64,000 nt of DNA, from NCBI GenBank assembly GCA_016176505.1, contig JACOXB010000008.1:984-64983 (forward strand), read 5' to 3'. How positions within the stretch are numbered: the stretch's first letter is position 1; each line of letters opens with the position of its first letter. The translations under genes were made by a program, and so were the position numbers. Of this stretch, positions 2,617 to 49,134 are shown piece by piece. The DNA is from Candidatus Colwellbacteria bacterium (GTDB taxonomy: Bacteria > Patescibacteriota > Minisyncoccia > UBA6257 > Colwellbacteraceae). The notes under the pieces are model-generated. The model was not told the origin of the DNA, did no database searches, and saw only the letters and a program-made list of their open reading frames with translations.

Positions 2617-2756
2617 TTCGAAGCTAGAAGTCTGCGGGTAGCCGGACAATCTCTAGTTTAGGACGGCCTGGTTCCGACTGGGCCGCTCCTCGAGTAGTTC
2701 CGGTCTCGAGTCGCCTATGACTTACCCTAAGTACCCGCAGTCTTCTGGCTTTCGAA
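2617..2756 (+). ncRNA. Candidate structured small RNA (~140 nt) closed by a ~24-bp imperfect terminal helix. Class not identified.
   Basis: ttcgaaGCTAGAAGTCTGCGGGTA at 2617-2640 pairs with TACCCGCAGTCTTCTGGCtttcgaa at 2732-2756. Internal local hairpins are present. It starts about 6 nt after the -10 box above. The 3' arm overlaps the last codons of pilB on the other strand. Confidence 0.25.
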
Positions 2757-4448
2757 CCAACCAATCGGTCCGCTCGCTCGAATCACCTCTTCCAAACTGG
2801 TCACGCCCTGGAGCGCTTTCAAGACGCCGTCTTCCTGCATCGTTACCATTCCCTTCTTCCTCGCCGCTTGTTCAATCTCAGATTCGGTTGCTCCTTCTTT
2901 CATTAAAAGATCGAGGGGGGTTCCGCCTCCGCCGGATTCAAATAATTCGAAAATGCCGACCTGCCCCCGATAGCCTTCTTCGCAACGATTACAACCCTTA
3001 CCAGGTTCGTAAATCTTAGCGTCTCGGAGGGAACGGGCAGAACCAGAGACTCGCTCGGGCAGGCTTTTTAAAAATTCCTCAATCTTAATTCTCGCCGGCT
3101 CCTCTATTTTAAGCTCTTCCCGGCAGTAAGGACAGAGACGCCTAACCAGTCTTTGGGCGATAACAATAATCAGAGCCGGACCAATCACGCCTGGCTTCAC
3201 CCCCAAGTCAACCAAGCGAGGAATAGCGCCCGAGGCATTATTAGTATGAAGGGTTGAAAAAACTAGGTGACCAGTGAGAGCCGCGTGAATCGCGGTTTCG
3301 GCAGTTTCTAAGTCTCTTATCTCGCCAACGAGAATTATGTCCGGATCCTGCCTCAGGATCGAACGAAGTCCGGCCACAAAAGTATAGCCGGATTCAAGAT
3401 CAACCTCGGTCTGCTCAATGCCTGAAAGGTGGTACTCAATCGGATCCTCAACCGTGATAATTTTCAGGGCCGGAGTTTTAACTTTAGCGAGAAAAGCATA
3501 GAGAGTGGTGGTCTTGCCCGAACCAGTGGGACCGGTAACCAAAACCATGCCGTTCGGCCGGGCCAGGGCCGCCGTAATCACTTTTTCGTCATCAGACCTG
3601 AAGCCTAAATCTTTCAGGGTTAAAACAATCTTTCGCGGGTCAAGAATTCTCATCACCACCGCCTCGCCAAACTCGGCCGGCACCACCGAAGCTCTTACCT
3701 CAACCTCGCCTTCATCGCCTGAAACAGTAAAGCGTCCGTCTTGAGGGCTATCAGTCACATTTAATTTGAGTTTGGCAAAAAGCTTAATCCGGCTCGTTAA
3801 TCTTTCGGCTATTTCGGCTGGAACTTGATTCACATCTTTTAGGAGGCCGTCGATCCGAAAGCGGATTGAAGTACCGCCTTCGGAGTGCGGTTCAAGATGA
3901 ACGTCAGAGGCCCCGAGCACTAAAGCTGAGGCGAAAATGGCTTCAACTAGCTGGCTGGTCGGCCCTTCTTTTTTTGAACTAATAAAGTCTGTGGCAAGAG
4001 TAGTAGTTTTCGCCGAGGTCCTCGCCGCATCTAAAATTGACTTAGTTAAGGCGGCCTCGGCTGTCACTGGTTTTTTGCCCAGTCCGAGGCGCTTCGCTTC
4101 TTTAAGATAACGAGCCCAAAGGGATTCAAGCCCTTTAAGCGAAGCAATTACTAAATTCACTTCGTAGCCGCGGGTTTTTAAATTCCCGAGGAGTTCTTTA
4201 AGCTCTGGCCGGAGCGAGCTGTAAATCGCAAGGGTTAATTTCTCTTTTTTAGCCTCGATCGGGATGGCCTTCGCCTGCCGTTCTTCTTCCTCGGTTAAAA
4301 GTAGTAAGGCCGCCGAGTCAACGGCGGTTTCCGCGAGATTAAGATAGGGAAAGCCCTCGGCTTGGGCCCTCCGTCTCGCATCTCTTTCCTCAGCGGCTTC
4401 GTTAAAAGAAGTGATTTTAGAGACAAGGGTATCTCTAGATAAGCGCAT
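2727..4448 (-). CDS. pilB: Type IV pilus assembly / type II secretion ATPase (PilB/GspE family)
   Basis: 573 aa with Walker A LVTGPTGSGKTTT, a tetracysteine CPYC...CNRC motif and an N-terminal GspE_N-like region. Confidence 0.85.
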   Translation of the reverse strand: MRLSRDTLVSKITSFNEAAEERDARRRAQAEGFPYLNLAETAVDSAALLLLTEEEERQAKAIPIEAKKEKLTLAIYSSLRPELKELLGNLKTRGYEVNLVIASLKGLESLWARYLKEAKRLGLGKKPVTAEAALTKSILDAARTSAKTTTLATDFISSKKEGPTSQLVEAIFASALVLGASDVHLEPHSEGGTSIRFRIDGLLKDVNQVPAEIAERLTSRIKLFAKLKLNVTDSPQDGRFTVSGDEGEVEVRASVVPAEFGEAVVMRILDPRKIVLTLKDLGFRSDDEKVITAALARPNGMVLVTGPTGSGKTTTLYAFLAKVKTPALKIITVEDPIEYHLSGIEQTEVDLESGYTFVAGLRSILRQDPDIILVGEIRDLETAETAIHAALTGHLVFSTLHTNNASGAIPRLVDLGVKPGVIGPALIIVIAQRLVRRLCPYCREELKIEEPARIKIEEFLKSLPERVSGSARSLRDAKIYEPGKGCNRCEEGYRGQVGIFELFESGGGGTPLDLLMKEGATESEIEQAARKKGMVTMQEDGVLKALQGVTSLEEVIRASGPIGWFESQKTAGT

Positions 4449-5805: not shown

Positions 5806-8256
5806 GTGCTTAAAGACGCCTTTCGCTGGCTAGGACAAAAACGAGTCAAGACTCAGATCTTAATCGGCCTTGCCGGTTTAGTCTTAGCGGGCGGCATTTT
5901 TACTTTTCGGGTTTTTGCGAGTCTGCCCAAAACTGAGGAAATCGGCGAGCTTCGAGTTCCCGAATCAACTAAAATTTATGACCGGACTGACGAAACTCTG
6001 CTTTACGAAGTTTACGGTGAGGCTAAACGAACCGTTATCCCGCCTGACGAGATCCCGGACCGTTTGAGGCAAGCCACGATTGCGATTGAGGACAACTCGT
6101 TTTACAGCCATCCGGCTTTCGACTGGCGCGGCATTGTAAGAGCAGTCGGCGTCAATCTCTTACGGGGCGAGTTTGCCCAAGGCGGTTCAACTATTACCCA
6201 ACAGCTCGCAAGGAGCGCTTTTCTTACTTCGGAGAAAACTATTACTCGAAAAATCAAGGAGCTTGTTTTAGCTAATCGCCTAGAAAATGAATACAGCAAG
6301 GACGAAATCCTTGATCTTTATTTGAACCAGGTTTCTTATGGTCCGAATATTTATGGAGTCGAGACCGCTTCCCAGGCTTACTTTAACAAAGGCGCTAAGG
6401 ATTTAAGCCTGAACGAGGTTGTAACTTTGGTGGCTCTGCCCCGTTCGCCCAGTTATTACTCGCCTTGGGGTAATCATTTAAAAGAACTGGAAGATCGGAA
6501 AAACTTTATTGCCCGCCGGATGCGGGAGCTCGGTTATATTGACGAGGCTGAGCTTGCCTCAATCAACACGGTCCTACCCGAGATTGCCGAGCGACCTCGC
6601 GAAGGAATTAGGGCGCCGCACTTCTCCCTCTATATCCAGGATTATCTCCAGGAAAAATACGGCGAAGAAGCTTTGCAAAGAGAAGGCTTTAGGGTAACTA
6701 CGAGTCTTAGCTGGGAACTGCAAGAAATCGCCGAGGAAGCGGTAAAAAACGGGGTTGAAAGAAATGACCGGCTCTATGGCGGCTCAAACGGAGCTTTAGT
6801 CGCGATGGATCCTCAGACTGGTCAGATCTTGGCCTTAGTTGGTTCAAAAGACTATTTTGGCGATTCTAAGCCTGACGGCTGTGAAGAAGGCAGGACTTGC
6901 ACTTTTGAAGGCAATTTTAATGTGGCGATGCAGGGTCTAAGGCAGCCTGGTTCAGCGCTTAAGCCGTTTGCTTATCTCACTGCTTTTTCTAAAGGGCTCA
7001 CGCCCGAAACGATTGTTTGGGATGCGCCGACTGAATTTAATACTTCCTGCTCGACAAGTTTTACTCCGGGGGTAAGAACTCCTGGCTGTTATCATCCTTC
7101 TAACTTTGATGGCCTGTTCCGCGGACCAGTAATGTTTAAAGAGGGCTTGGCCCAATCAATCAACGTGCCATCGGTCAAGGTGCTTTATCTCGCTGGCCTC
7201 TACGACACTATCGATACTCTTTCGCGTTTCGGTATCACCACCTTAACTGATCCTAATCGCTATGGACTTTCTCTGGTGCTTGGCGGCGGTGAAATAAAAT
7301 TAATCGAACTGGTTGGGGCTTACTCAACCCTCGCGGCTGATGGAGTTTATCACGAACCGGTGACGATTCTAAAAATCGAAAACAATAAGGGTGAGGTGCT
7401 TGAAGAATATAAAGAGGAAGGGAATAAAGGCGAGAATGTAGTTGATCCCCAGCTTGCAAGACAAATTAATGACATTCTCTCAGACGTCTCGCTCCGAGCG
7501 CCGCTTTTCCACGCAAGCCTATCGCAGACTCAGGTACCCGGGTTTCAAGTGGCTTTAAAAACCGGAACCACTGATGACTATAAAGATGCTTGGGCTTTTG
7601 GTTACGCCCCGAATCTCGTAGTTGGCGTTTGGGCTGGCAACAACAATCGGATTTCTCTCCAAAGCCAGGGTTCGAGCATCCTGGCTGCTATTCCAATGTG
7701 GCATGATTTCATGTCAAAGGCTCTGCCTAAATTCCCAGCGGTTGGCTTTAACCATCCGGCGCCGACCCAAACCTCAAATCCAATTCTTCGGGGAGAACTG
7801 GTTGATGACGGTTTCCACAGTATTCTTTATTACCTTAATCGGGTAGGCGATTCCCAGTACTCGCACTGGGAAACCGGTATTAGAAATTGGCTCGCGACCC
7901 ACTCAGTTGATCTTTCTAGATTTAATGTAGTTGATGCGGGTGAAGGATTTGGTCCGGGCGAAGCTGGAGGTGAGGGTGAAATTAATCTCCGGATAGACGA
8001 ACCGGAGAATGGCGACTTTATTGACTCCGGTATCGCAATTAGCTTTAGGGCTGACTCCGAACGACCGATCAGTAAAATCGAGGTTTATTTTAACGACCGC
8101 TTGATAGCGACCGAATACGGCGACTTAGGTAAGAAGCCAAAATACGAAACGGTAATTAACCCGAAAAACATTGAACTCCAAAACTCGCTCGTAATTAGAG
8201 TGGTTGACGAAGAGGGGTTAAGAGAAGAGAGGGAGCTAATTCTTTACCGTAGGTAG
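5806..8256 (+). CDS. Class A penicillin-binding protein 1A (glycosyltransferase plus transpeptidase)
   Basis: 816 aa with a GTG start and an N-terminal TM helix. GT51 motifs (EDNSFYSHPAFD, QGGSTITQQLA) precede the transpeptidase motifs (SALKPF, KTGTT). Confidence 0.9.
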   Translation: MLKDAFRWLGQKRVKTQILIGLAGLVLAGGIFTFRVFASLPKTEEIGELRVPESTKIYDRTDETLLYEVYGEAKRTVIPPDEIPDRLRQATIAIEDNSFYSHPAFDWRGIVRAVGVNLLRGEFAQGGSTITQQLARSAFLTSEKTITRKIKELVLANRLENEYSKDEILDLYLNQVSYGPNIYGVETASQAYFNKGAKDLSLNEVVTLVALPRSPSYYSPWGNHLKELEDRKNFIARRMRELGYIDEAELASINTVLPEIAERPREGIRAPHFSLYIQDYLQEKYGEEALQREGFRVTTSLSWELQEIAEEAVKNGVERNDRLYGGSNGALVAMDPQTGQILALVGSKDYFGDSKPDGCEEGRTCTFEGNFNVAMQGLRQPGSALKPFAYLTAFSKGLTPETIVWDAPTEFNTSCSTSFTPGVRTPGCYHPSNFDGLFRGPVMFKEGLAQSINVPSVKVLYLAGLYDTIDTLSRFGITTLTDPNRYGLSLVLGGGEIKLIELVGAYSTLAADGVYHEPVTILKIENNKGEVLEEYKEEGNKGENVVDPQLARQINDILSDVSLRAPLFHASLSQTQVPGFQVALKTGTTDDYKDAWAFGYAPNLVVGVWAGNNNRISLQSQGSSILAAIPMWHDFMSKALPKFPAVGFNHPAPTQTSNPILRGELVDDGFHSILYYLNRVGDSQYSHWETGIRNWLATHSVDLSRFNVVDAGEGFGPGEAGGEGEINLRIDEPENGDFIDSGIAISFRADSERPISKIEVYFNDRLIATEYGDLGKKPKYETVINPKNIELQNSLVIRVVDEEGLREERELILYRR

Positions 8257-13142: not shown

Positions 13143-15515
13143 CTAAAGCTCGTCTTGTTCCCTTAAAATTTGCTCTGGATCAGTGGTAATCAACTTATCT
13201 TCAAAATAAGACGGCACAACCTGGATCGCTACGTGTTTCAAGCCGGCGATGAAAAGCCCGGTGCCCACCTCTGCCTCGAGCAGGTAGCTTTTTTCAGTTT
13301 CAGTCAGATTAAATGATTTGGCAGCCAACTCGATCGCGGCTGGCGATTGCCTAAGAAGCAGTTGGAGCGAGGAATTAGTGATAATCGGTCGGCCATAAGG
13401 CGAGTTTAAGAAGTCTTCAACATCCTGAGTAATAGTTGAGATGCCAAGATAGTATTTTCTCGATCGTTTGGCCAAGCGATAAAGGAAAGAGGCGCTGTCC
13501 GGATACTTCATCATCCACCAAGCCTCATCAACAACCATAATTCTTTTTTTCAGTTCTCGCCGCACCAGGCTCCAGACAAAGTTCAAGATAATATACATCG
13601 CAATCGGCCGCAGTTCTTCCTCTAAATCGCGCACCGAAAAAACAATTAAGCGGTTATCAATATTAACGTTAGTGGGCCGATTAGCAAAACCAACGTAACT
13701 GCCCTTAGTAAAGCGATAAAGCCGGTTCGCCATATCGCGACCCCCTTCGATGTTTCGCAGAACCTCTTCAAGATTTTCTAAAAGCGGCGGCTCTTTGCCG
13801 GTAAAATCTTTATCAGCCGTAATGTCTTTCGAGGCATAGGTTTCAGTAATAGCCTGGTCAAGTAAAGCCTCTTCTTCGGAGCTAATTTTGCCGAGCATCA
13901 GCTTAACTAAACCGCTGAGGTCAACAATATGCGATTTTAAGGCTTCGCCCGGAGTTTCGTCTTCGGCCATAATCGGCAAGTCGAGCGGGTTGATCGTACT
14001 CTCTGACTGCAAAGAGATCCGGAAATAACTGCCGCCAACTGCTTTTGCTAGGGTTTCGTATTCATTTTCCGGATCAACAATAATCAGGTCCGAACCAAGC
14101 ATCATCGAGCGAATTACCTCGAGCTTAGTGGCATAAGATTTTCCCGAACCAGCCTTGCCAAAAATAACCATATTAGCGTTTTCGAGCGAAAAGCGGTCAA
14201 AAATAATAACGGTATTGTTGTGGCGGTTTAAGCCGTAAAGCACGCCCTCATCCGAAGTTAAATCAAGAGCGATAAAGGGGAAGAAAGAAGAAACCGGCGC
14301 CGAGTTTAAGGGAGTATGGATGCCGAGCTCGTCTCTCGCCAGAGGCGCGGTTGAAACAAATCCCTTTAATTGCTCAAAGTTCGCCGGTTTAAGGTTCACT
14401 AATTTGCTATCTAGGTCTTTAATAATTCGATTCTCGAGCCCGACAAGCTCTTTTTCCGAATCAGCGTAGATAGTGATGTAAACACTTGTGTCAAAAAGTT
14501 TTTCTTCAGCCCGCTGGAGTGAATCTCTGAGCATCTCAATGTCCTGGAGGGCCGTCTCAAGCAGAGGATTCCGAATCAACCCCTTTTCTTGGCCCTCCAT
14601 TATTTGGGCTTCGATTTGGGTTGTTTTTCTTCTTAAGTTTTTTAGAGCCGTGCCGGTATCAAGCGGATGAACAAAGATAGAAATATCTAAAAGTTCGGGC
14701 AGGTTAATAATCGGCGAGAACCAGCCGCTTGAAAGATAGCGCGGATAATTGAACACAAAAAGCGTTTTTAAGTACTTCTCGCCGATCCGGATAAAGTTTG
14801 GTGAAACTTCGGCCGAGGCCGGCGCCACAATGTCCTCAAGTCCGGCAATGCCGCTTTTGCCTTGGCGGCCGATAGCTTCGCCCCTTTTTTCGATTGTAGC
14901 CGGGTTGTAATAATTAAAATAAAGCTCAAGTAATTCCGGATCCTCAAGCGCCACAGCCCGGAGGCCAATTTGGCGCAGACTATTAATTACCTGTTCGGTC
15001 CGCTGATCTAGCTGCTCTTGGTGAAGCGGGTCAACTGCTTCGTTAATTTCGCCGACACCTTCGGACGCTGTTTTTTTGCCACCGAGAAATTTACCAAAGA
15101 TTGATTTAGCTGGGCCGGGCAGGACTGGCGGGTCAAAAGGAACAACCACAAAAAAACTTTTCGCCATAATGGCGTTCGTCTCCACAAAAGATTTAACAAA
15201 CTCCCGATATTCCTCGAGCTGGATTTTTAAAAGTTTATTAGGCTCGTTTTGCTGCCTTTCCTCGAGCGATCGGAGATATTCATCAACATTTAATTTGCGG
15301 GAGTGGATATTAATCTGAATTGAAAAATCGAGCGAGTTAAGCAGGCTTTGATAGGTGCCAATAATGATTTTTTGCTCGTCCTCGGACTTAAGGTCAAAAT
15401 TTAAGCCGTCAACTAAGACAACCTTCCGGAGAGCCCCGTTTTTAAGAATTACAATGCCATCCTTAATATCCTGGATGTCGACAATGCTCTGGGCGCGCGC
15501 CGCTTCAGTCGCCAT
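13143..15515 (-). CDS. virB4: VirB4/TrbE/CagE-family type IV secretion ATPase
   Basis: 790 aa. The C-terminal ATPase has Walker A VIFGKAGSGKS and Walker B IMVVDEAWWMM, the VirB4 DEAW signature. Confidence 0.85.
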   Translation of the reverse strand: MATEAARAQSIVDIQDIKDGIVILKNGALRKVVLVDGLNFDLKSEDEQKIIIGTYQSLLNSLDFSIQINIHSRKLNVDEYLRSLEERQQNEPNKLLKIQLEEYREFVKSFVETNAIMAKSFFVVVPFDPPVLPGPAKSIFGKFLGGKKTASEGVGEINEAVDPLHQEQLDQRTEQVINSLRQIGLRAVALEDPELLELYFNYYNPATIEKRGEAIGRQGKSGIAGLEDIVAPASAEVSPNFIRIGEKYLKTLFVFNYPRYLSSGWFSPIINLPELLDISIFVHPLDTGTALKNLRRKTTQIEAQIMEGQEKGLIRNPLLETALQDIEMLRDSLQRAEEKLFDTSVYITIYADSEKELVGLENRIIKDLDSKLVNLKPANFEQLKGFVSTAPLARDELGIHTPLNSAPVSSFFPFIALDLTSDEGVLYGLNRHNNTVIIFDRFSLENANMVIFGKAGSGKSYATKLEVIRSMMLGSDLIIVDPENEYETLAKAVGGSYFRISLQSESTINPLDLPIMAEDETPGEALKSHIVDLSGLVKLMLGKISSEEEALLDQAITETYASKDITADKDFTGKEPPLLENLEEVLRNIEGGRDMANRLYRFTKGSYVGFANRPTNVNIDNRLIVFSVRDLEEELRPIAMYIILNFVWSLVRRELKKRIMVVDEAWWMMKYPDSASFLYRLAKRSRKYYLGISTITQDVEDFLNSPYGRPIITNSSLQLLLRQSPAAIELAAKSFNLTETEKSYLLEAEVGTGLFIAGLKHVAIQVVPSYFEDKLITTDPEQILREQDEL

Positions 15516-43420: not shown

Positions 43421-46400
43421 GTGTTAAAAGATAAAGAAACACTTAATCTGGCTCTGCTTGAAGAAAAGGTGCTTCGGGTTTGGCAGGAGAATCATATTTT
43501 TGAGAAATCACTCGATCGGCCGAAAAGGAAAGCCTTTCATTTTTACGAAGGGCCGCCTTATGCGAACGGTTTACCCGGGATTCACCATGTTTTGAGCCGG
43601 GTTTTTAAAGATATTATTCTTCGCTATAAAACCATGCAGGGATATTTTGTGCCTCGCAAGGCTGGTTGGGATACGCATGGTTTGCCGATTGAGCTCGCGG
43701 TAGAAAAAGAACTCGCCATTAAGAACAAAGACGAGATTGAAAAAATCGGTATTGATAAATTTAACCAAAAGGCGCGCGAAATCATCTTCACCTACAAAGA
43801 TGAGTGGGAAAAATTTACGAGACGCATCGGCTATTGGCTTGATCTCGATAACGCTTACGTTACTTATGAAAATTCTTATATCGAAAGCCTTTGGTGGATT
43901 TTTAAAACCGTTGAAGACCAGGGTTATTTAAAGCAGTCGCGCAAAGTCGTGCCTTACTGCCCAAGGTGTGAAACGCCTCTTTCCAACCACGAAATGGGCA
44001 TGCCTGATGTTTATCGAACCGCTGAAGATCCCTCAATCTACGTTAAGTTTAAGTTAACTGAAGATAATCCCGGCGTTCTACCGAATGAATATCTTCTGGT
44101 TTGGACTACTACGCCTTGGACTCTGCCGGCTAATATGGCGGTCGGGGTCGATCACGAACTTGAATACACCAAGTACCAAGTTGGTGATGAATTTCTCTGG
44201 AGTTATCGACCGCCGCCAAAACTGGCGCACGAAATTAAACCGCTCGAGAAGAAAAAGGGTAAGGAGTTAATTGGCTTAAAGTACGAGCCGCTTTACTCTC
44301 TTTCTCTTCCCAATCCGCCGGCTAAAACCTTTACTGTTATCTGGGCTGATTTTGTGAAAACCGAAGAAGGAACCGGTTTAGTTCACATTTCACCAGCTTT
44401 TGGTGAAGAAGATTTTTCAAATTGGGGAGGCGAGGGCTTTGTCGTCACCATTGATGATCAGGGCCGGATTCAGTCCGGTTTCCCGGGCGCCCGAAAGTTT
44501 CTTAAACAAGCTGACGAGGACATTATCGAGGATTTAAAAAGAAGGGGATTGCTCTATCTGGGCGAGAAAATCGAACACGAGTATCCTTTTTGCTGGCGCT
44601 GTTCGACGCCGATTGTTTATTTTGCTCGAACCGGCTGGTTTTTTGAGATGAGCCGTTTGCGCGAGGAGCTTTTAGCAAACAACGACAAAATTAACTGGAT
44701 TCCAGCTCATATTAAAACCGGTCGTTTTGGCGAATGGATTAAAAATGCGGTTGACTGGTCTATTTCCCGGGAGCGTTATTGGGGGACACCTTTACCAATC
44801 TGGCTTTGTTCCAAGGGTCATCGCAAAGTAATCGGCGCTCTCCACGAATTGGATAAGAACGCTTTTTCTAAAAATCAGTTCTTTATTTTACGGCACGCTG
44901 AGGCTGAATCTAATATTTCCTGGGTTTTAGCTTCAGGTCCGGAAGAAGGGGAGAGAAAATCAGCTTTAACTGAAAAAGGTTTAACCGAAGCCAGAGAACT
45001 CGCTAAATATTTTAAAAAAGAAAAAATTGATCTTATTTTTGCCTCGCCCTATGAACGAACCCGGCATACAGCCGAAGTTATCGCTGAGGCTGTCGGTGCT
45101 AGGTTAATTACCGACGAGCGGTTGAGTGAGCTTAATGGCGGCATCTTTAACTGGAAAAAAATTAAAGAACATCAGGGATTCTATGCTGATCCGCTTGAAC
45201 AATTTGTGAAGCGTCCGCCTGAAGGCGAGAATCTCCAGGATGTTCGAGAGCGGATGCTTGATTTTGTTCGCGAGGTTAATAAGGAGCATAGCGACAAAAA
45301 GATTTTAATTGTTTCTCACCAAGCGCCGCTTTGGCTGCTCGAAACCGGAGTAAAACATTTATCAAATGAAGAAGCACTTAAAATCCCAGGCCCTAATGTC
45401 TCCGAATGGCGCAGGCTCGAGCTTGATAACTTACCAGTCACTCGAACCGGCGAGATTGATCTGCACCGACCTTATATTGATGAAATCTATCTGCGATGCC
45501 AAGAGTGCGGTGAAAAAATGATCCGGGTGCCGGATGTGGCTGATGTTTGGTTTGATTCCGGCGCTATGCCTTGGGCCTCAGGCATCGAAGGCTATCCGGC
45601 TGATTATATTGCTGAAGGCATTGATCAAACCCGGGGCTGGTTTTACACCCTCTTAGCGGTAGCTACTCTTCTTGGCGCGGGGCCGCCGTATAAAAATGTG
45701 ATTTCCTTAGGTCTTATTAATGATAAATACGGCCAAAAGATGTCAAAATCAAAAGGGAATGTGATCGACCCTCAGGCGATTATCAATAAATACGGCATTG
45801 ATGCCGTTCGCTGGTATTTTTATACTGTTAATCCCCCGGGTGAGCCGAAAAACTTTGACGAGGAAGAGGTGGCTCTCGCGATCAGGCGCTTTTTTCTGAT
45901 TCTTTATAATTCCTTCAATTTTTACGAGAATACCCGGGTAAGCGAGAAGAAAAAAACCGGCCTTCTACCCAAGTTCCGGAAAACCGAACATGTGCTTGAC
46001 CGCTGGATTTTAGCCAGACTCCACCAAACTATTGATGAGGTAACCAGGAAGCTTGAAATTTATGAGATTGGCGATGCGGCAAGATCAATCGAAACTTTGG
46101 TTGATGATCTCTCGCGCTGGTATATTCGACGCAGTCGCCGGCGAGGAGAGATGGCAGAAACTTTAGGCCAAGTGCTATTTGAGACAAGTAGACTCATCGC
46201 GCCGTTTGCGCCGTTTTTCGCTGACGCCCTATATCACTCAACCACGACGACCGGTGGAATAAAGGCTAAAATTTCAGTCCATCTTGATAACTGGCCTCGG
46301 GCTACAAAATCTCGGATTCGGAAAGAGGTGCTCGAGAAAATGGTAAAGACCCGCAAGCTGGCAGCTTTAGCTCTTGCCAAACGTAACGAAGCCGGCGTCC

Positions 46401-46825
46401 GAGTTAGGCAGCCGCTTAACCTGATGAAGATTAAAGAGCCAGAACTTAAAAATAAAGAAGAATATCTCGAGATTCTTAAGGAAGAAGTTAATGTGAAAGA
46501 GATTGTTTTTGATGACGGGATTAAGGAAGAAGTTGAACTTGATCTGACTCTTACCCCAGAACTTAAGGAAGAGGGCGTGGTTCGGGAACTCGTGCGATTG
46601 ATTCAGAATTTAAGGCGGGAGGCCAAATTAAAGCCTAAGGATGAAATAATGCTTTTTCTTTCTTTGCCCCCTAGGCTCGCGGCGGCTGCGAACGCTCGGC
46701 TTGACCAGGTGCGTAAAGAAGTAGGCGCCAGAGCCATTGAATTCCGGAGGTCGGATAAGTTTGACGCTGAGTTTTCAACTAAAATCGAAGCTGAATCAGT
46801 CTGGTTAGGCTTGAAAAAAATATAA
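43421..46825 (+). CDS. ileS: Isoleucine--tRNA ligase (type-2-like) carrying an inserted histidine-phosphatase (PGAM-family) domain
   Basis: Motifs PYANGLPGIHHV (HIGH), WTTTPWTLPAN (editing) and KMSKSKGN are present. About 190 aa spliced between RYWGTPLPIW and the CxxCG knuckle read FFILRHAEAESN...LTEKG...ASPYERTRHTAEVIAE...ILIVSHQAPLW. Confidence 0.9.
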   Translation: MLKDKETLNLALLEEKVLRVWQENHIFEKSLDRPKRKAFHFYEGPPYANGLPGIHHVLSRVFKDIILRYKTMQGYFVPRKAGWDTHGLPIELAVEKELAIKNKDEIEKIGIDKFNQKAREIIFTYKDEWEKFTRRIGYWLDLDNAYVTYENSYIESLWWIFKTVEDQGYLKQSRKVVPYCPRCETPLSNHEMGMPDVYRTAEDPSIYVKFKLTEDNPGVLPNEYLLVWTTTPWTLPANMAVGVDHELEYTKYQVGDEFLWSYRPPPKLAHEIKPLEKKKGKELIGLKYEPLYSLSLPNPPAKTFTVIWADFVKTEEGTGLVHISPAFGEEDFSNWGGEGFVVTIDDQGRIQSGFPGARKFLKQADEDIIEDLKRRGLLYLGEKIEHEYPFCWRCSTPIVYFARTGWFFEMSRLREELLANNDKINWIPAHIKTGRFGEWIKNAVDWSISRERYWGTPLPIWLCSKGHRKVIGALHELDKNAFSKNQFFILRHAEAESNISWVLASGPEEGERKSALTEKGLTEARELAKYFKKEKIDLIFASPYERTRHTAEVIAEAVGARLITDERLSELNGGIFNWKKIKEHQGFYADPLEQFVKRPPEGENLQDVRERMLDFVREVNKEHSDKKILIVSHQAPLWLLETGVKHLSNEEALKIPGPNVSEWRRLELDNLPVTRTGEIDLHRPYIDEIYLRCQECGEKMIRVPDVADVWFDSGAMPWASGIEGYPADYIAEGIDQTRGWFYTLLAVATLLGAGPPYKNVISLGLINDKYGQKMSKSKGNVIDPQAIINKYGIDAVRWYFYTVNPPGEPKNFDEEEVALAIRRFFLILYNSFNFYENTRVSEKKKTGLLPKFRKTEHVLDRWILARLHQTIDEVTRKLEIYEIGDAARSIETLVDDLSRWYIRRSRRRGEMAETLGQVLFETSRLIAPFAPFFADALYHSTTTTGGIKAKISVHLDNWPRATKSRIRKEVLEKMVKTRKLAALALAKRNEAGVRVRQPLNLMKIKEPELKNKEEYLEILKEEVNVKEIVFDDGIKEEVELDLTLTPELKEEGVVRELVRLIQNLRREAKLKPKDEIMLFLSLPPRLAAAANARLDQVRKEVGARAIEFRRSDKFDAEFSTKIEAESVWLGLKKI

Positions 46826-46907
46826 GAACCTGCTATACTAATATAAATTCTAAGTCCTCCTACGCATCTATTTTGATAAAGAGTCGAATTACATTAAATT
46901 TTAATGC

Positions 46908-47052
46908 GGGATTCCTGCCTGCCGTACGGAACATCCCGCAGGCCTAGCTCGGCTTGGTCTCCGACTCAAGTCGGAGCGAGCAGGCCGAGGGAGAAGAAAT
47001 TTTTGCCGCTGGAACAAAAATATTCTGGTTCCGATAGGCAGGGAGGAATCCC
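46908..47052 (+). mobile_element. MITE-like element: the ~123-bp repeat core flanked by 16/17-bp terminal inverted repeats
   Basis: GGGATTCCTGCCTGCC at 46908-46923 and GGCAGGGAGGAATCCC at 47037-47052 are inverted repeats with one mismatch. The core equals the copy at 39322-39444. It lies 6 bp upstream of tRNA-Leu. Confidence 0.55.
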
Positions 47053-47058
47053 GTCCTA

Positions 47059-47142
47059 GGGCAGGTGGTGAAATTGGTAGACACGTAGCGTTCAGGGCGC
47101 TATGACCGCAAGGTCATGAGGGTTCAAATCCCTCCCTGCCCA
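47059..47142 (+). tRNA. tRNA-Leu (anticodon CAG), long variable arm
   Basis: GGGCAGGTGGTGAAATTGGTAGACACGTAGCGTTCAGGGCGCTATGACCGCAAGGTCATGAGGGTTCAAATCCCTCCCTGCCCA has a 7-bp acceptor, a TTCAGGG anticodon loop and a 15-nt variable arm. Confidence 0.85.
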
Positions 47143-47312
47143 CAAGGTAAGTCTATGAATTCAATCAAAACAGTAACTTGGGGTCCTGCTTATCACCGTC
47201 CCTGGGATTTGAACGGGAAAGGGGTCGGGAAAACGGGAGTTTTCCCGTGGCGGAGTACACGAACCGATGGGTTCGTGAGCGCAGCCGCCGAAGGCGCAGC
47301 GAGCAGTGAAAA

Positions 47313-47332
47313 TCCCTCCCTGCCCACAAAAT
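47313..47332 (+). repeat. Direct repeat of the tRNA-Leu 3' end (att-like)
   Basis: AAATCCCTCCCTGCCCACAA at 47126-47145 (tRNA T-arm, acceptor and 3 nt beyond) recurs exactly at 47313-47332. The ~165-bp segment between the copies holds two perfect hairpins. Confidence 0.6.
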
Positions 47333-47343
47333 AAGAAAGCTTT

Positions 47344-49134
47344 ATGCCTCAGAAAACTTTAACGAGAACCACAAGACGACCCCGGCCCCTGCCTGCCGCG
47401 AGGCAGGCTAATAGGGTTAAGAAAGCCATTACTAAACCGACTAAATCTGCCTCGGCTCAGAAGGCCGTTCCGGCTGACACGCTTAAACTCGTGCCTTTAG
47501 GCGGCCTTGAAGAGATCGGCCGCAATATGAGCTTTCTCGAGTACGAAGACGAGATTGTAATTATTGATATGGGGCTCCAGTTCCCGGAAGAAGATACGCC
47601 GGGGATTGATTATATTATCCCGAACATTGCCTATCTCCAGCCGAAAAAAGATAACGTCAAAGCCGTGGTCATTACCCATGGCCACTATGATCACATCGGC
47701 GCTGTGCCTCACTTAATCGGTAAATTAGGCAACCCCCCGATTTATACCTTACCTCTTACTAAAGCCATCCTTGAAAAAAGGCAGGAGGAATTTATGAATG
47801 CCCCCAAGCTTAATATCGTTACTGTTAAGTACGGCGACAAAGTAAAAGTGGGCAAACATTTTGAACTAGAATTTTTCGGCGTTGAACACACGATCCCAGA
47901 ATCAATGGGCGTGTTGATTAAAACTCCAGTCGGCAACATCGTTCACTCGGGCGATTTTCGCTTTGACCGCGATGCGAACGGCAATATTTATCGTTTTGAT
48001 GAACTCCAGCGCGTAGGTAAGATGGATATTCATACTCTTATCGTTGATGCGACAAACGCTCTCGAAGAGGGGTACGGTATACCCGAGACTGAAGTGATGA
48101 AAAATCTCGAAGAGCTGCTCCGCAAGGCCAAGGGCCGGATAGTGCTTGCTACCTTTTCCTCAATGCTTACTCGCATCGGCGAGATTATCAAGATTGCCGA
48201 GAAGCTTGGGAAAGTTGTGATGTTGAACGGTCGGTCGATGCGCGAGAATGTCGAGATCGCCAAAAGACTAGGCTATATTAAAGCTAAAAAAGATACTTTT
48301 GTTCCGGTTCAGGAAGTTTCAAAGTATAAAGACGATAAAATTTTAGTAATTTCAACCGGGGCTCAGGGCGAACCCACCGCCGGTTTGATGCGGATTGCCA
48401 ATGGCGAACATCGTCATATTCAGATTAAGCATGGTGATACTTTTATCTTCTCCTCATCTGTCATTCCAGGGAATGAACGGAGCGTCCAAGCCTTGACTGA
48501 TAATATCGCTCGTCAAGGAGCCCTAGTTTATAACTCTAAACTGCTTGATATTCACTCGAGCGGCCACGCCCTAGCCGGAGACATCAAGTTATTTATTAAA
48601 ACCGTAAAACCCCGTTACCTTATGCCCCAACACGCTTACTATTATTTTCGTTACGCCGGCGGCCAGCTGGGAATCGAGGCAGGTGTTTCTGAAAAAAATA
48701 TCCGGTTGCTTGACAATGGCAGCGTCGGCTTGCTCACCAAGGACGATTTCAAGGTTAGTGAAGAAACCGTGCCGGTTTATTACGTTATGGTTGATGGTTT
48801 GGGCGTCGGTGACGTGGAAGAGGTGGTCCTACGTGACCGATTGACGCTCGCCCAAGAAGGGATGATCGTGATTATTACCACCCTGGATCGAAAGTCGGGG
48901 AAACTGGTTAAAAATCCGGACATCATCTCCCGCGGCTTTATTTATCTTCGCGAAAGCCAGGAACTGCTAAATGAAATTCGGGGCCGAATCCGCTCTATTA
49001 TCAGCCGGATTCCCCGGCATCAGCCCCTTGACTCTGATTACTTAAAATCCCTGCTTCGGGATCAGATTGGCCAATTTGTTTATCGTGAGACCAACCGCCG
49101 GCCAATGATCTTGCCAGTGATTATCGAAATCTAA
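47344..49134 (+). CDS. rnj: Ribonuclease J
   Basis: HxHxDH motif VITHGHYDHIG, beta-CASP and C-terminal domains; 596 aa with a basic N-terminal extension. Confidence 0.85.
   Translation: MPQKTLTRTTRRPRPLPAARQANRVKKAITKPTKSASAQKAVPADTLKLVPLGGLEEIGRNMSFLEYEDEIVIIDMGLQFPEEDTPGIDYIIPNIAYLQPKKDNVKAVVITHGHYDHIGAVPHLIGKLGNPPIYTLPLTKAILEKRQEEFMNAPKLNIVTVKYGDKVKVGKHFELEFFGVEHTIPESMGVLIKTPVGNIVHSGDFRFDRDANGNIYRFDELQRVGKMDIHTLIVDATNALEEGYGIPETEVMKNLEELLRKAKGRIVLATFSSMLTRIGEIIKIAEKLGKVVMLNGRSMRENVEIAKRLGYIKAKKDTFVPVQEVSKYKDDKILVISTGAQGEPTAGLMRIANGEHRHIQIKHGDTFIFSSSVIPGNERSVQALTDNIARQGALVYNSKLLDIHSSGHALAGDIKLFIKTVKPRYLMPQHAYYYFRYAGGQLGIEAGVSEKNIRLLDNGSVGLLTKDDFKVSEETVPVYYVMVDGLGVGDVEEVVLRDRLTLAQEGMIVIITTLDRKSGKLVKNPDIISRGFIYLRESQELLNEIRGRIRSIISRIPRHQPLDSDYLKSLLRDQIGQFVYRETNRRPMILPVIIEI

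Follow-up and report, generated by a model that had tools for sequence, protein, structure and literature searches.

A histidine-phosphatase domain nested within the isoleucyl-tRNA synthetase of Patescibacteria

The ileS gene and the domain nested in it

The window analyzed here is a stretch of 64,000 nucleotides from a contig (JACOXB010000008.1) of a Candidatus Colwellbacteria bacterium. It encodes an isoleucyl-tRNA synthetase (IleRS) immediately downstream of an arginyl-tRNA synthetase (ArgRS), and the IleRS contains a histidine-phosphatase module within its catalytic core. The features of the locus are given below, with the HIGH, CP1 and KMSKS motifs assigned from sequence; conservation counts refer to 456 module instances, embedded and free-standing modules taken together.

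41714-43411, + strand: argS (ArgRS), with Pfam tRNA-synt_1d, DALR_1 and Arg_tRNA_synt_N; ends 9 nt before ileS
43421-46825, + strand: ileS, an open reading frame with a GTG start, 1134 aa; type-2 IleRS with a nested phosphatase domain
43574-43588, + strand: HIGH signature, variant P-G-I-H-H (GxHH), aa 52-56
44102-44413, + strand: CP1 editing-domain core motifs, from WTTTPWTLP (aa 228-236) to GTGLVHISPAFGEED (aa 317-331)
44774-44821, + strand: RYWGTPLPIW strand, then the first zinc knuckle in its altered form, L-C-S-K-G-H (C463, G466, H467)
44864-45454, + strand: nested histidine-phosphatase module, aa 482-678 (PF00300; Pfam core aa 488-661, nt 44882-45403)
44891-44896, + strand: R491-H492 of the RHG motif (here R-H-A, with A493), including the predicted phospho-accepting His; identical in 456 of 456 instances
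45056-45058, + strand: R546, second phosphate-binding Arg (SPYERT motif); identical in 455 of 456 instances
45128-45130, + strand: E570, predicted general acid (SELNGG); Glu or Asp in 452 of 456 instances
45317-45319, + strand: H633, second catalytic His (VSHQAPLW); identical in 456 of 456 instances
45458-45562, + strand: return to IleRS, with DLHRPYID, the second zinc knuckle C693-x-x-C696 and then the DVWFDSG strand
45737-45751, + strand: KMSKS signature, aa 773-777

The 1134-aa protein scored 814 bits against the TIGR00392 ileS model (cut-off 621.4), in two stretches parted by the insert, and its best sequence matches in the PDB were 1ILE (E = 1e-222) and 8C8W (E range 1e-222 to 1e-215), which agrees with the Thermus-type IleRS named in the initial annotation. 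The full-length predicted model matched 8C8U, 8C8V and 1ILE with TM scores of 0.75-0.82 (normalized by target), and the structural matches that ranked best were IleRS2 enzymes. PF19302 (DUF5915), found at aa 1038-1133 (E = 1e-16), indicates the C-terminal organization of the type-2 enzymes and not IleRS1's zinc-binding domain. With the type-2 enzymes of known structure (1ILE, and PmIleRS2 in 8C8U, 8C8V and 8C8W) the protein shares its domain order, from the catalytic fold through the CP1 editing domain, the zinc-knuckle connective peptide and the anticodon-binding domain to the PF19302 C terminus. PmIleRS2 likewise has its HIGH motif as GxHH.

Residues important for synthetase function were conserved among 39 relatives. 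H56 of the HIGH motif was invariant and H55 was present in at least 90%; K773, M774, S775 and K776 of the KMSKS signature were invariant; and the editing residues T229-T231, H322 and D331 were invariant or nearly so. The region from aa 198 to 389 matched the isolated editing domain of the T. thermophilus IleRS (1WK8, E = 9e-34). C693 and C696 of the second zinc knuckle were invariant in relatives. The first knuckle, initially described as lost, is more accurately altered: its second Cys is replaced by Gly466, followed by His467, but C463 is kept, and the C..G..H form was confined to a Colwellbacteria-like subgroup, whereas most relatives, like the solved type-2 enzymes, have CxxC. Two other identities were rejected: the mupirocin-type models MupB and MupA (714 and 689 bits, cut-off 1900) and the ileS_w_GNAT model NF040702 (273 bits, cut-off 1999). 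Its motifs and profile matches mark this protein as the housekeeping IleRS in a Patescibacterium of Paceibacteria type, and it is predicted to charge tRNA-Ile.

The insert lies between the two zinc knuckles, where approximately 197 aa take the place of approximately 7 aa in 1ILE and PmIleRS2 (8C8W), so the canonical enzymes are not equally long at this site. Position 481 of the query aligned with residue 480 of 1ILE and position 679 with residue 488, and the boundaries obtained with the P. megaterium IleRS2 (478 and 485) agreed with this picture. The spacing of about 25 residues given in the initial annotation for the flanking segments in Thermus-type enzymes is close to the approximately 30 found in 1ILE. 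The host loop belongs to the second half of the catalytic fold, where it connects the strand ending in PLPIW with the DVWFDSG strand. We take this loop between the zinc knuckles to be the putative connective peptide CP3, following the nomenclature of CP core, CP1, CP2 and CP3 for class Ia aminoacyl-tRNA synthetases (aaRS) (PMC11685878).

Domain mapping placed His_Phos_1 (PF00300) at aa 488-661 (E = 6e-34; 117.9 bits against a gathering cut-off of 21.7; profile positions 2-175 of 194), between a tRNA-synt_1 match at aa 17-485 (profile positions 2-271) and its resumption after about aa 680. When the interval 44879-45450 (aa 487-676) was scanned alone against Pfam, His_Phos_1 was the only match (E = 1.4e-35), with no membership in the family I, family II or membrane pyrophosphatases. 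The full histidine-phosphatase catalytic set reported in the initial annotation was present, with every quoted motif in its place: LRHAEAESN (aa 490-498), LTEKG (516-520), SPYERTRHTA (542-551), SELNGG (569-574) and VSHQAPLW (631-638). The catalytic residues were invariant across 39 diverse full-length proteins. The module had a pLDDT of 87-96 inside the full-length model and, modelled alone, a pLDDT of 93.6 and a pTM of 0.91; it is predicted to fold as an independent domain. The insert is almost certainly a real and conserved domain and a catalytically competent phosphatase, and it is predicted to act as a phosphohydrolase.

An assembly chimera, or a decaying and catalytically dead passenger, is the least credible account of the insert. 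The one observation in its favor is that GC3 was slightly lower in the insert (0.381, against 0.455/0.463), a gap of about two standard errors that gives no clear foreign signal; total GC was 0.437 compared to 0.455 in the remaining gene, so that the DNA can be regarded as compositionally native, as first proposed. The reading frame is unbroken, the fold is predicted at very high confidence, and independent assemblies show the identical architecture: every one of the 120 best relatives has it, as do hundreds of GTDB species. These results bear out the view that this is an evolved insertion and make a chimera extremely improbable; conservation of the catalytic residues (455-456 of 456 instances) rules out a dead passenger domain.

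Family placement of the module

The module is of the short phosphatase type of branch 1 of the histidine phosphatases (PspA/PhoE/CobC-like, approximately 175-197 aa). The model of the insert alone matched PspA, GpgP, PhoE and CobC with TM scores of 0.76-0.80 and Foldseek E values from 2e-14 to 1e-11. The nearest solved structures were PspA (4IJ5), PhoE (1H2E), CobC (6NRU and 6E4B), GpgP Rv2419c (4PZA) and a riboflavin-pathway phosphatase (9MMH). The module has the fold, the size class and the catalytic Arg-His, Arg, Glu and His of these enzymes, at TM scores of 0.75-0.80 and 21-26% identity, but scored below the curated cut-off of every such family: 84-87.5 bits for the PspA equivalog (cut-off 350), 77-82 for CobC (TIGR03162, 162.9) and 64-67 for GpmB (261). 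It further differs from the canonical short phosphatases in being embedded in, or encoded beside, an aaRS, and in the residues after the RHG motif, which are ASGPE in the module and YPWPE in its free-standing form, compared to QG in the canonical enzymes.

The initial annotation had placed the insert in the phosphoglycerate-mutase family. This holds for the superfamily but not for the family, since the cut-offs for cofactor-dependent phosphoglycerate mutases (dPGM) were far from reached: 80-85 bits against 225 for NF038349, 35 against 81.7 for TIGR01258 (pgm_1), and 22-34 against 305-409 for NF002339, NF002217, NF010713, NF010718 and NF010716. The long form of dPGM (approximately 230-250 aa) has an extra substrate-capping segment and a C-terminal tail, while the module, at only about 175-197 aa, is some 50 aa shorter. 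TM scores normalized by target were 0.55-0.66 against dPGM and BPGM chains and 0.71-0.77 against the short phosphatases. It is consequently highly improbable that the glycolytic mutase step of the cell is supplied from within IleRS, even though the superfamily is the same, dPGM structures were among the fold matches, and there was a weak match to an archaeal dPGM model.

Distribution, genome context and other hosts

PF00133 and PF00300 occurred together in all of the 120 best database relatives (50-100% identity, 1119-1219 aa), which were drawn from NCBI, JGI, ENA and Logan assemblies. Matches were found in 313 GTDB species representatives; in the 80 loci kept from these, nearly all of the complete open reading frames with the match encoded approximately 1140-1240 aa and had the module at around residue 640. 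Much of the Paceibacteria (Parcubacteria) has the nested-phosphatase IleRS as its normal architecture. These proteins are already present in public databases under uninformative names, the NCBI pipeline label being 'class I tRNA ligase family protein'.

The module was not limited to one site. Embedded modules were found on three divergent IleRS backbones in at least four different loops, one of them in the anticodon-binding region. The proteins with modules at other IleRS loops included P0207 and P0256, the latter with six cluster members on contigs of up to 1.06 Mb. A further IleRS (P0270) contained an additional, co-inserted P-loop domain with generic similarity to small kinases (APS kinase, shikimate kinase and Pnkp1; E = 0.02-0.06). 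A single protein on an 11-kb contig (P0254) combined IleRS, phosphatase, GNAT and a REP-type transposase match and had no anticodon domain; it is possibly disrupted and was left out of the argument. In a neighbor-joining tree of 140 modules (197 columns) the deep splits received practically no bootstrap support; the free-standing modules tended to group in it.

Free-standing orthologs of approximately 190 aa, annotated in their source as 'broad specificity phosphatase PhoE', abutted ileS at nine of the ten loci examined. The phosphatase gene was directly upstream of an ileS without insert at L064, L072, L080, L081, L082, L089/90, L091/92 and L093/94, with gaps of 20, 4 and -4 nt in the last three, and at L084 the two genes were convergent. 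The gene order SmpB-argS-(phosphatase)-ileS was the same in the window and in the loci with a free-standing phosphatase. Where additional open reading frames occurred in the loci examined, they lay between argS and the phosphatase gene, and never between the phosphatase gene and ileS.

Related modules were also found in other enzymes. In the valyl-tRNA synthetases (ValRS) of Gracilibacteria/Peregrinibacteria they occupy the loop homologous to the IleRS loop: 70 of 119 ValRS relatives contained one to three modules, and 73 of the 83 modules began 16-24 aa past H[RQ]IPVW. With 32-76 bits against the profile of the IleRS insert, these modules make up a subfamily that is more canonical and more remote, and their substrate may differ from that of the IleRS modules. 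Fusions to ArgRS were found on two 70-kb contigs, and could be a trivial joining of neighboring genes. A fusion to ATP sulfurylase, with three cluster members, was found on a 114-kb contig, adjoining a sulfotransferase gene, and a fusion to Sua5/TsaC on a single short contig only. The module belongs to a Patescibacteria subfamily tied to IleRS physically or through gene position. This wider pattern of a free-standing ileS neighbor, other insertion sites, ValRS hosts and other partners was not part of the initial annotation, and it is the functional clue.

The pattern bears directly on whether the module is an ordinary small-metabolite phosphatase, with substrates such as phosphoserine, sugar phosphates or cofactor intermediates and a chemistry unrelated to aminoacylation. 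Under this explanation the gene would have been co-expressed with ileS, and in genomes of very small size its product would later have been joined to a protein that is both abundant and essential. The closest characterized relatives are metabolite phosphatases, the free-standing form carries the PhoE name, and loop insertions are tolerated by large multidomain aaRS. The block of IF3, SmpB, argS, ileS and RecO is generally conserved, so the adjacency may in part be frozen synteny. However, the phosphatase gene has kept to ileS although other open reading frames have entered between it and argS, and recurrence at several IleRS loops, at a ValRS loop in another lineage and in three more partners that release pyrophosphate (PPi) would require much coincidence. 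We consider an unrelated metabolite phosphatase unlikely.

Proposed function and its alternatives

All of the partners carry out the reaction ATP + X -> X-AMP + PPi, and removal of a by-product is therefore the most economical reading of the data. The ileS-linked gene, the use of several IleRS loops and of the homologous ValRS loop, and the fusions to ArgRS, Sua5 and ATP sulfurylase together point to a functional link to amino-acid activation. The module is probably coupled functionally to aaRS or adenylate-forming chemistry. Its job would depend on the chemistry of the partner enzyme rather than on a fixed geometry: it would destroy a phospho by-product at source, with pyrophosphate as the leading candidate. 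PPi reverses the formation of aminoacyl-adenylates, the principle on which ATP-PPi exchange is assayed, and its removal would drive amino-acid activation forward and block pyrophosphorolysis of Ile-AMP. Taken whole, this explanation has in our estimation a probability of about 0.5.

The identity of the target is more tentative, and pyrophosphate specifically is a candidate that we hold at well under even odds. The proposal stems from the fusion partners and not from homology. The nearest characterized relatives (PspA, PhoE, CobC, GpgP and 9MMH) are all phosphomonoesterases, we know of no branch-1 histidine phosphatase that hydrolyzes PPi, and general removal of PPi would not obviously need attachment to IleRS or ValRS; each of these points counts against pyrophosphate. 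Phosphoanhydrides are cleaved by branch-2 histidine phosphatases (AppA and the phosphatase domain of Vip1). Signatures of family-I and membrane pyrophosphatases were absent from the 0.96 Mb of loci, which is too little sequence per genome to judge by. That the module is an unrecognized PPi (phosphoanhydride) hydrolase on the histidine-phosphatase fold, replacing or supplementing the ordinary pyrophosphatase of these minimal cells and wired into IleRS, ValRS and other adenylate-forming enzymes, is a rather doubtful, if possible, extension.

In the main rival to pyrophosphate removal, the module would be a 3'-phosphatase that acts on adenosine nucleotides or on the ends of RNA. Such an enzyme would clear a 3'-phosphate, 2',3'-cyclic phosphate or 3'-pyrophosphate from A76 of tRNA, making damaged or toxin-modified tRNA rechargeable, and might also hydrolyze pAp. 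toxSAS toxins (CapRel and FaRel2) pyrophosphorylate the CCA end of tRNA, and most of the partners (IleRS, ValRS and ArgRS) bind the tRNA 3' end. The required reaction is ordinary phosphomonoesterase chemistry, which fits the fold, and CobC, a near structural relative, works on a nucleotide-like substrate. The IleRS with a P-loop kinase-like insert, with its weak similarity to Pnkp1 and APS kinase, could be read in the same direction. The sulfotransferase beside the ATP sulfurylase fusion belongs to a pathway that yields pAp, chemically equivalent to a 3'-phosphorylated terminal A, and for this fusion a pAp 3'-phosphatase role fits equally well. Sua5/TsaC, however, binds neither the tRNA 3' end nor pAp, and a module that occurs both as a protein of its own and in four or more IleRS loops, one of them in the anticodon-binding region, speaks against any requirement for exact placement at A76. 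A general tRNA-healing activity is also hard to square with confinement to IleRS or ValRS, and to our knowledge no RNA-end phosphatase has the histidine-phosphatase fold. A 3'-phosphatase has perhaps one chance in several.

Another candidate is a protein phosphatase resembling SixA, PGAM5 or Sts-1, which would relieve inhibition of the synthetase by dephosphorylating it, perhaps at the KMSKS loop. This loop is where kinases of the HipA/HipT type phosphorylate class I aaRS (HipA acts on GltX and HipT on TrpS), the hosts here are class I aaRS, and action in cis would account for the physical linkage. The superfamily includes such phosphatases, but the SixA match was weak (29.8-35 bits, far under the cut-off of 74.5) and the nearest structures were small-molecule enzymes. 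The Sua5 and ATP sulfurylase fusions do not suit this role, and no kinase partner was seen in the neighborhoods examined. Neither the insert nor the free-standing protein had a match in the PADLOC defence library, which counts against both the 3'-phosphatase and the protein phosphatase; the latter we regard as improbable.

Several known systems resemble the present one in part. In some eukaryotes a pyrophosphatase is joined to ATP sulfurylase, and these ATP sulfurylase/APS kinase/pyrophosphatase proteins share the logic of joining an adenylate-forming, PPi-releasing enzyme to one that removes its product; their pyrophosphatase has the family-I fold, whereas the module is a histidine phosphatase in which PPi hydrolysis is hypothetical. 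The curated model NF040702 describes an earlier case in which an IleRS bears an enzyme domain foreign to it, there an N-acetyltransferase (GNAT) domain in a different protein family. In the bifunctional RNase H/CobC-type acid phosphatase (NF005567, Rv2228c type) a branch-1 phosphatase is fused to an enzyme of nucleic-acid metabolism, and the insert matched its phosphatase half with 72-74 bits (cut-off 326); that fusion is end to end and with another partner enzyme, rather than nested. Lineage-conserved loop insertions are known in class Ia synthetases, such as the leucine-specific domain of LeuRS and the INS subdomain of IleRS2 (bioRxiv 10.64898/2026.02.03.703510; PMC11685878). Those are small modules for contact with RNA or protein, whereas the module described here brings in an entire enzyme, active site included.

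The words 'phosphatase' and 'Patescibacteria' are absent from a 2026 survey of IleRS evolution (bioRxiv 10.64898/2026.02.03.703510). In a full-text literature search no publication was found that describes an aaRS combined with a histidine phosphatase, consistent with the initial annotation, which knew of no aaRS fused to a PGAM-like domain, nor any on pyrophosphatase loss in Patescibacteria or on a link of phosphate-ester or anhydride hydrolysis to amino-acid activation in this group. The aaRS are among the most conserved enzymes, and it is unusual for an essential synthetase to hold a complete second enzyme in its catalytic core. Since the NCBI names of these proteins are generic, automated metabolic reconstructions may miss IleRS or ValRS in these genomes.

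The phosphatase domain within isoleucyl-tRNA synthetase

The host gene and two of its signatures are:

43421-46825, + strand: ileS, one unbroken ORF with a GTG start, encoding 1134 aa
43574-43588: HIGH signature, in the form P-G-I-H-H
44804-44821: first zinc knuckle, C463-S-K-G466-H467 in place of CxxC

The curated ileS model TIGR00392 identified the product as an isoleucyl-tRNA synthetase (814 bits, cut-off 621.4), and the closest solved structures by sequence were T. thermophilus IleRS (1ILE, E 1e-222) and Priestia megaterium IleRS2 (8C8W, E 3e-217). The type-2 C-terminus (PF19302) was also found. The HIGH-type motif, KMSKS, the GIDQTRGWF region, and the editing-site motifs were all kept and conserved, so that, judged by its sequence, the host synthetase appears intact. 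The HIGH signature is the [A/G]xHH variant, which has been tied to mupirocin hyper-resistance in IleRS2 (bioRxiv 10.64898/2026.02.03.703510).

In this protein the class I catalytic domain was cut in two by Pfam, with His_Phos_1 (PF00300) in between at aa 488-661 (E 6e-34, 117.9 bits, cut-off 21.7). The initial annotation had placed a domain of the PGAM family at 44879-45450; that interval alone (aa 487-676) matched the same profile at E 1.4e-35, and every phosphatase and IleRS motif quoted for it was found in the sequence. Query residues 481 and 679 aligned with residues 480 and 488 of 1ILE, and the flanks of the insert paired with residues 478 and 485 of 8C8W, indicating that approximately 197 aa occupy the place of approximately 7 aa in the solved enzymes. 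The insertion site falls in the connective peptide running from the ...PLPIW strand to the ...DVWFDSG strand, between its two zinc knuckles. The connective peptides of IleRS have been named CP core, CP1, CP2, and CP3 (PMC11685878), and from the order of the elements the one bearing the insert would be CP3.

The first knuckle had been described as apparently lost, which is correct for the sub-lineage of the window only: C-S-K-G-H was found in the window protein and in a small number of close relatives (P0002, P0004, P0015, and P0032), whereas most relatives retained CxxC. The second knuckle (C693, C696) was invariant. Zinc binding at the altered knuckle may itself be altered, or may use His467 as a ligand.

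The insert was the best-scored part of the full-length predicted model (pLDDT 87-96), and it also folded when modelled separately (pLDDT 93.6, pTM 0.91). Several short phosphatases superposed on this model with TM 0.76-0.80: PspA (4IJ5/4IJ6), GpgP (Rv2419c), the riboflavin-pathway phosphatase 9MMH, PhoE (1H2E), and CobC. The curated dPGM, PspA, CobC, and GpmB models each scored far under their cut-offs on the insert. The PGAM assignment therefore held as membership of the PF00300 histidine-phosphatase domain, but not as phosphoglycerate mutase in the narrow sense; with dPGM scores this low and a length about 50 aa shorter than that of dPGMs, a true dPGM is very improbable. The subfamily has a distinctive loop after the RHG motif: embedded forms have ASGPE there and forms encoded by a separate gene have YPWPE, while canonical enzymes have QG.

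Recurrence of the module in synthetases and other enzymes

At NCBI an identical protein bears the name 'MAG: class I tRNA ligase family protein [Candidatus Colwellbacteria bacterium]'. PF00133 and PF00300 occurred together in all 120 of the best relatives drawn from NCBI, JGI, ENA, and Logan assemblies (50-100% identity, 1119-1219 aa), which, where names were given, came from Colwell-, Harrison-, and Liptonbacteria, Parcubacteria, Paceibacterota, and Minisyncoccota. A scan of GTDB with a motif of the insert, using one genome per species, yielded 313 confirmed relatives, and in the 80 loci kept nearly all complete match-bearing ORFs were approximately 1140-1240 aa long with the module around residue 640. 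Organism labels in many GTDB records (e.g. 'uncultured Candidatus Saccharibacteria') are the depositors' own and may be crude. Because the architecture recurred in the 120 best relatives and the 313 GTDB relatives, an assembly chimera was ruled out, and the chance of an artefact is practically nil. The domain insertion favored in the initial annotation was thus upheld, as was its view that the composition is native: GC was 0.437 in the insert and 0.455 in the remainder of the gene, and GC3 was 0.381 versus approximately 0.46, a marginal gap.

The module was found at exactly one common point in three divergent IleRS backbones: the window type (KMSKS, DVWFDSG), a eukaryote-like type (PPFATGLPHYGH ... 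CWFESG) found for example in Azam- and Jorgensenbacteria, and a third type (GPITANNPMGVHH ... NPWLDAG). In some IleRS and ValRS proteins (P0207, P0256, P0270, and P0235) the phosphatase module occurred two to four times, at different loops. P0207 had modules inside the second knuckle, at a site following CWFESGSMPYA, and within the anticodon-binding region. In P0256, whose cluster has six members on contigs of up to 1.06 Mb, the usual site was empty and each of the other two sites had one module. The P0270 IleRS contained an extra P-loop kinase-like domain, inserted after CWFESGSMPYA.

Seventy of the 119 best relatives (P0397-P0515) of the module-bearing ValRS P0235 contained His_Phos modules, one to three each. 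Where named, the sources of module-bearing ValRS were Gracilibacteria and Peregrinibacteria, and these proteins reached 1626 aa; in P0419, for example, the module spans aa 466-641. The module began 16-24 aa past H[RQ]IPVW in 73 of 83 cases, and this loop corresponds by homology to the insertion site of IleRS. The ValRS modules were closer to the canonical form and more remote from the IleRS insert (32-76 bits with a profile of that insert), and on this comparison were probably recruited separately.

End-to-end fusions were also found with three other partners:

P0226, L085/L086 5001-7070: ArgRS with a C-terminal module, on two 70-kb contigs
P0224, L087 977-2140: Sua5/TsaC with a C-terminal module, on one 3.7-kb contig
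P0155, L088 5001-6707: ATP sulfurylase with an N-terminal module, on a 114-kb contig beside a sulfotransferase gene

The fused modules belonged to the subfamily of the insert, though the Sua5/TsaC class was represented by one contig and the ATP sulfurylase class by three cluster members.

The free-standing phosphatase and the argS-ileS block

A free-standing orthologue of approximately 190 aa was abundant in Patescibacteria (at least 120 clusters at 90% identity), named in its sources 'histidine phosphatase family protein' or 'PhoE'. These proteins scored 143-216 bits with the profile of the insert, equal to embedded copies. The free-standing gene abutted an insert-less ileS in 9 of 10 examined loci, directly upstream on the same strand in eight and convergent in one (loci with this arrangement: L064, L072 with the phosphatase gene at 5995-6564, L080, L081, L082, L084, and L089-L094). 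Gaps between the two genes were 20, 4, and -4 nt in three loci measured among L089-L094. These loci all lay within the block L20-L35-IF3 / SmpB / argS / (phosphatase) / ileS / RecO, and intruding ORFs were positioned between argS and the phosphatase gene, never between the phosphatase gene and ileS. In L084 (2682-5609, - strand), where ileS and the phosphatase gene are convergent, IleRS was called as two ORFs, a 412-aa N-terminal and a 554-aa C-terminal part. Either this IleRS is truly divided, or the break comes from a frameshift or a sequencing error.

The window shares the IF3 / SmpB / argS / ileS block, and ileS begins 9 nt past the end of argS. Features of the block and its surroundings are:

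39461-39913: IF3
40085-40810, + strand: 241-aa ORF, overlapping an ORF at 40055-40516 (- strand)
40913-41356, + strand: smpB
41361-41677, + strand: tmRNA gene, 5 nt downstream of smpB, tag peptide ANQKVAVPAYAYA
41714-43411: argS
47059-47143: tRNA-Leu(CAG)
47344-49134: RNase J, with an Arg/Lys/Pro/Ala-rich N-terminal extension of approximately 45 aa upstream of the matched domains

Both smpB and the tmRNA gene are on the + strand in the window; in related loci the strand of smpB is opposite to that of argS. Between IF3 and SmpB is a patch of approximately 0.9 kb (40000-40900) with approximately 60% GC, against a window mean of 48%, and no Pfam match or credible Rfam match was found for its 241-aa ORF. 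It is possibly a foreign insertion, because related loci have just a short spacer there. A second GC-richer stretch (46900-47500, 0.53-0.55) covers the tRNA gene and the 5' end of RNase J. Also encoded in the window (2727-4448 and 13143-15515) are a type II/IV secretion ATPase (T2SSE) and a TraG/VirB4-like P-loop protein, both characteristic of the machinery with which Patescibacteria make pili and take up DNA.

Catalytic conservation and possible role

R491, H492, R546, E570, and H633 were invariant in 39 diverse full-length proteins. Across 456 module instances (304 embedded or fused, 152 free-standing), R491, H492, H633, and E603 were identical in all, R546 in 455, and the E570 position was Glu or Asp in 452. 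From its residues and predicted fold the insert looks like an active, catalytically complete phosphatase. What is established is strict purifying selection on a catalytically complete phosphatase that has been joined repeatedly and variously to IleRS and its relatives.

The link between phosphatase and synthetase would be functional, and since the module is found at several loops, in end-to-end fusions, and as a separate co-transcribed gene, the link would not depend on one fixed arrangement. That the module acts on an unrelated metabolite and is merely tethered is unlikely, and a protein phosphatase acting on the synthetase itself is quite improbable. One step that would be common to IleRS, ValRS, ArgRS, Sua5/TsaC, and ATP sulfurylase is ATP + X -> X-AMP + PPi. 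PPi pushes adenylation backwards, which is the foundation of the ATP-PPi exchange assay. Because all partners release PPi in forming X-AMP, and PPi drives the reversal, the leading mechanism, with a probability of about 0.3, is that the module may destroy pyrophosphate, or another phospho by-product, locally. Weaknesses of the pyrophosphate reading are that no branch-1 histidine phosphatase is known to hydrolyse PPi and that two partner classes, Sua5/TsaC and ATP sulfurylase, are represented by few sequences. The main alternative, removal of a 3'-phosphate from adenosine nucleotides or from tRNA ends, matches the usual chemistry of the fold, the binding of tRNA by the hosts, and the sulfotransferase context (pAp), but the Sua5 partner and the freedom of insertion site do not fit it, and it too was judged unlikely.

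Full-text search across 7.7 million PMC papers and bioRxiv found no description of an aminoacyl-tRNA synthetase with a histidine phosphatase, in agreement with the initial annotation, and a 2026 survey of how the domains of IleRS evolved uses neither the word 'phosphatase' nor 'Patescibacteria'. An IleRS that carries a further enzyme is in principle not without precedent, as the NCBIfam model 'IleRS with GNAT domain' shows. Module-bearing proteins are already public with both Pfam domains precomputed. The names given to them by the NCBI pipeline go no further than 'class I tRNA ligase family protein', presumably since the profile match is interrupted by the insert, and a reconstruction made automatically might for that reason list IleRS or ValRS as absent. 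The architecture was rated as lineage-specific domain accretion in an aminoacyl-tRNA synthetase, and its associations are unusually strong and varied.
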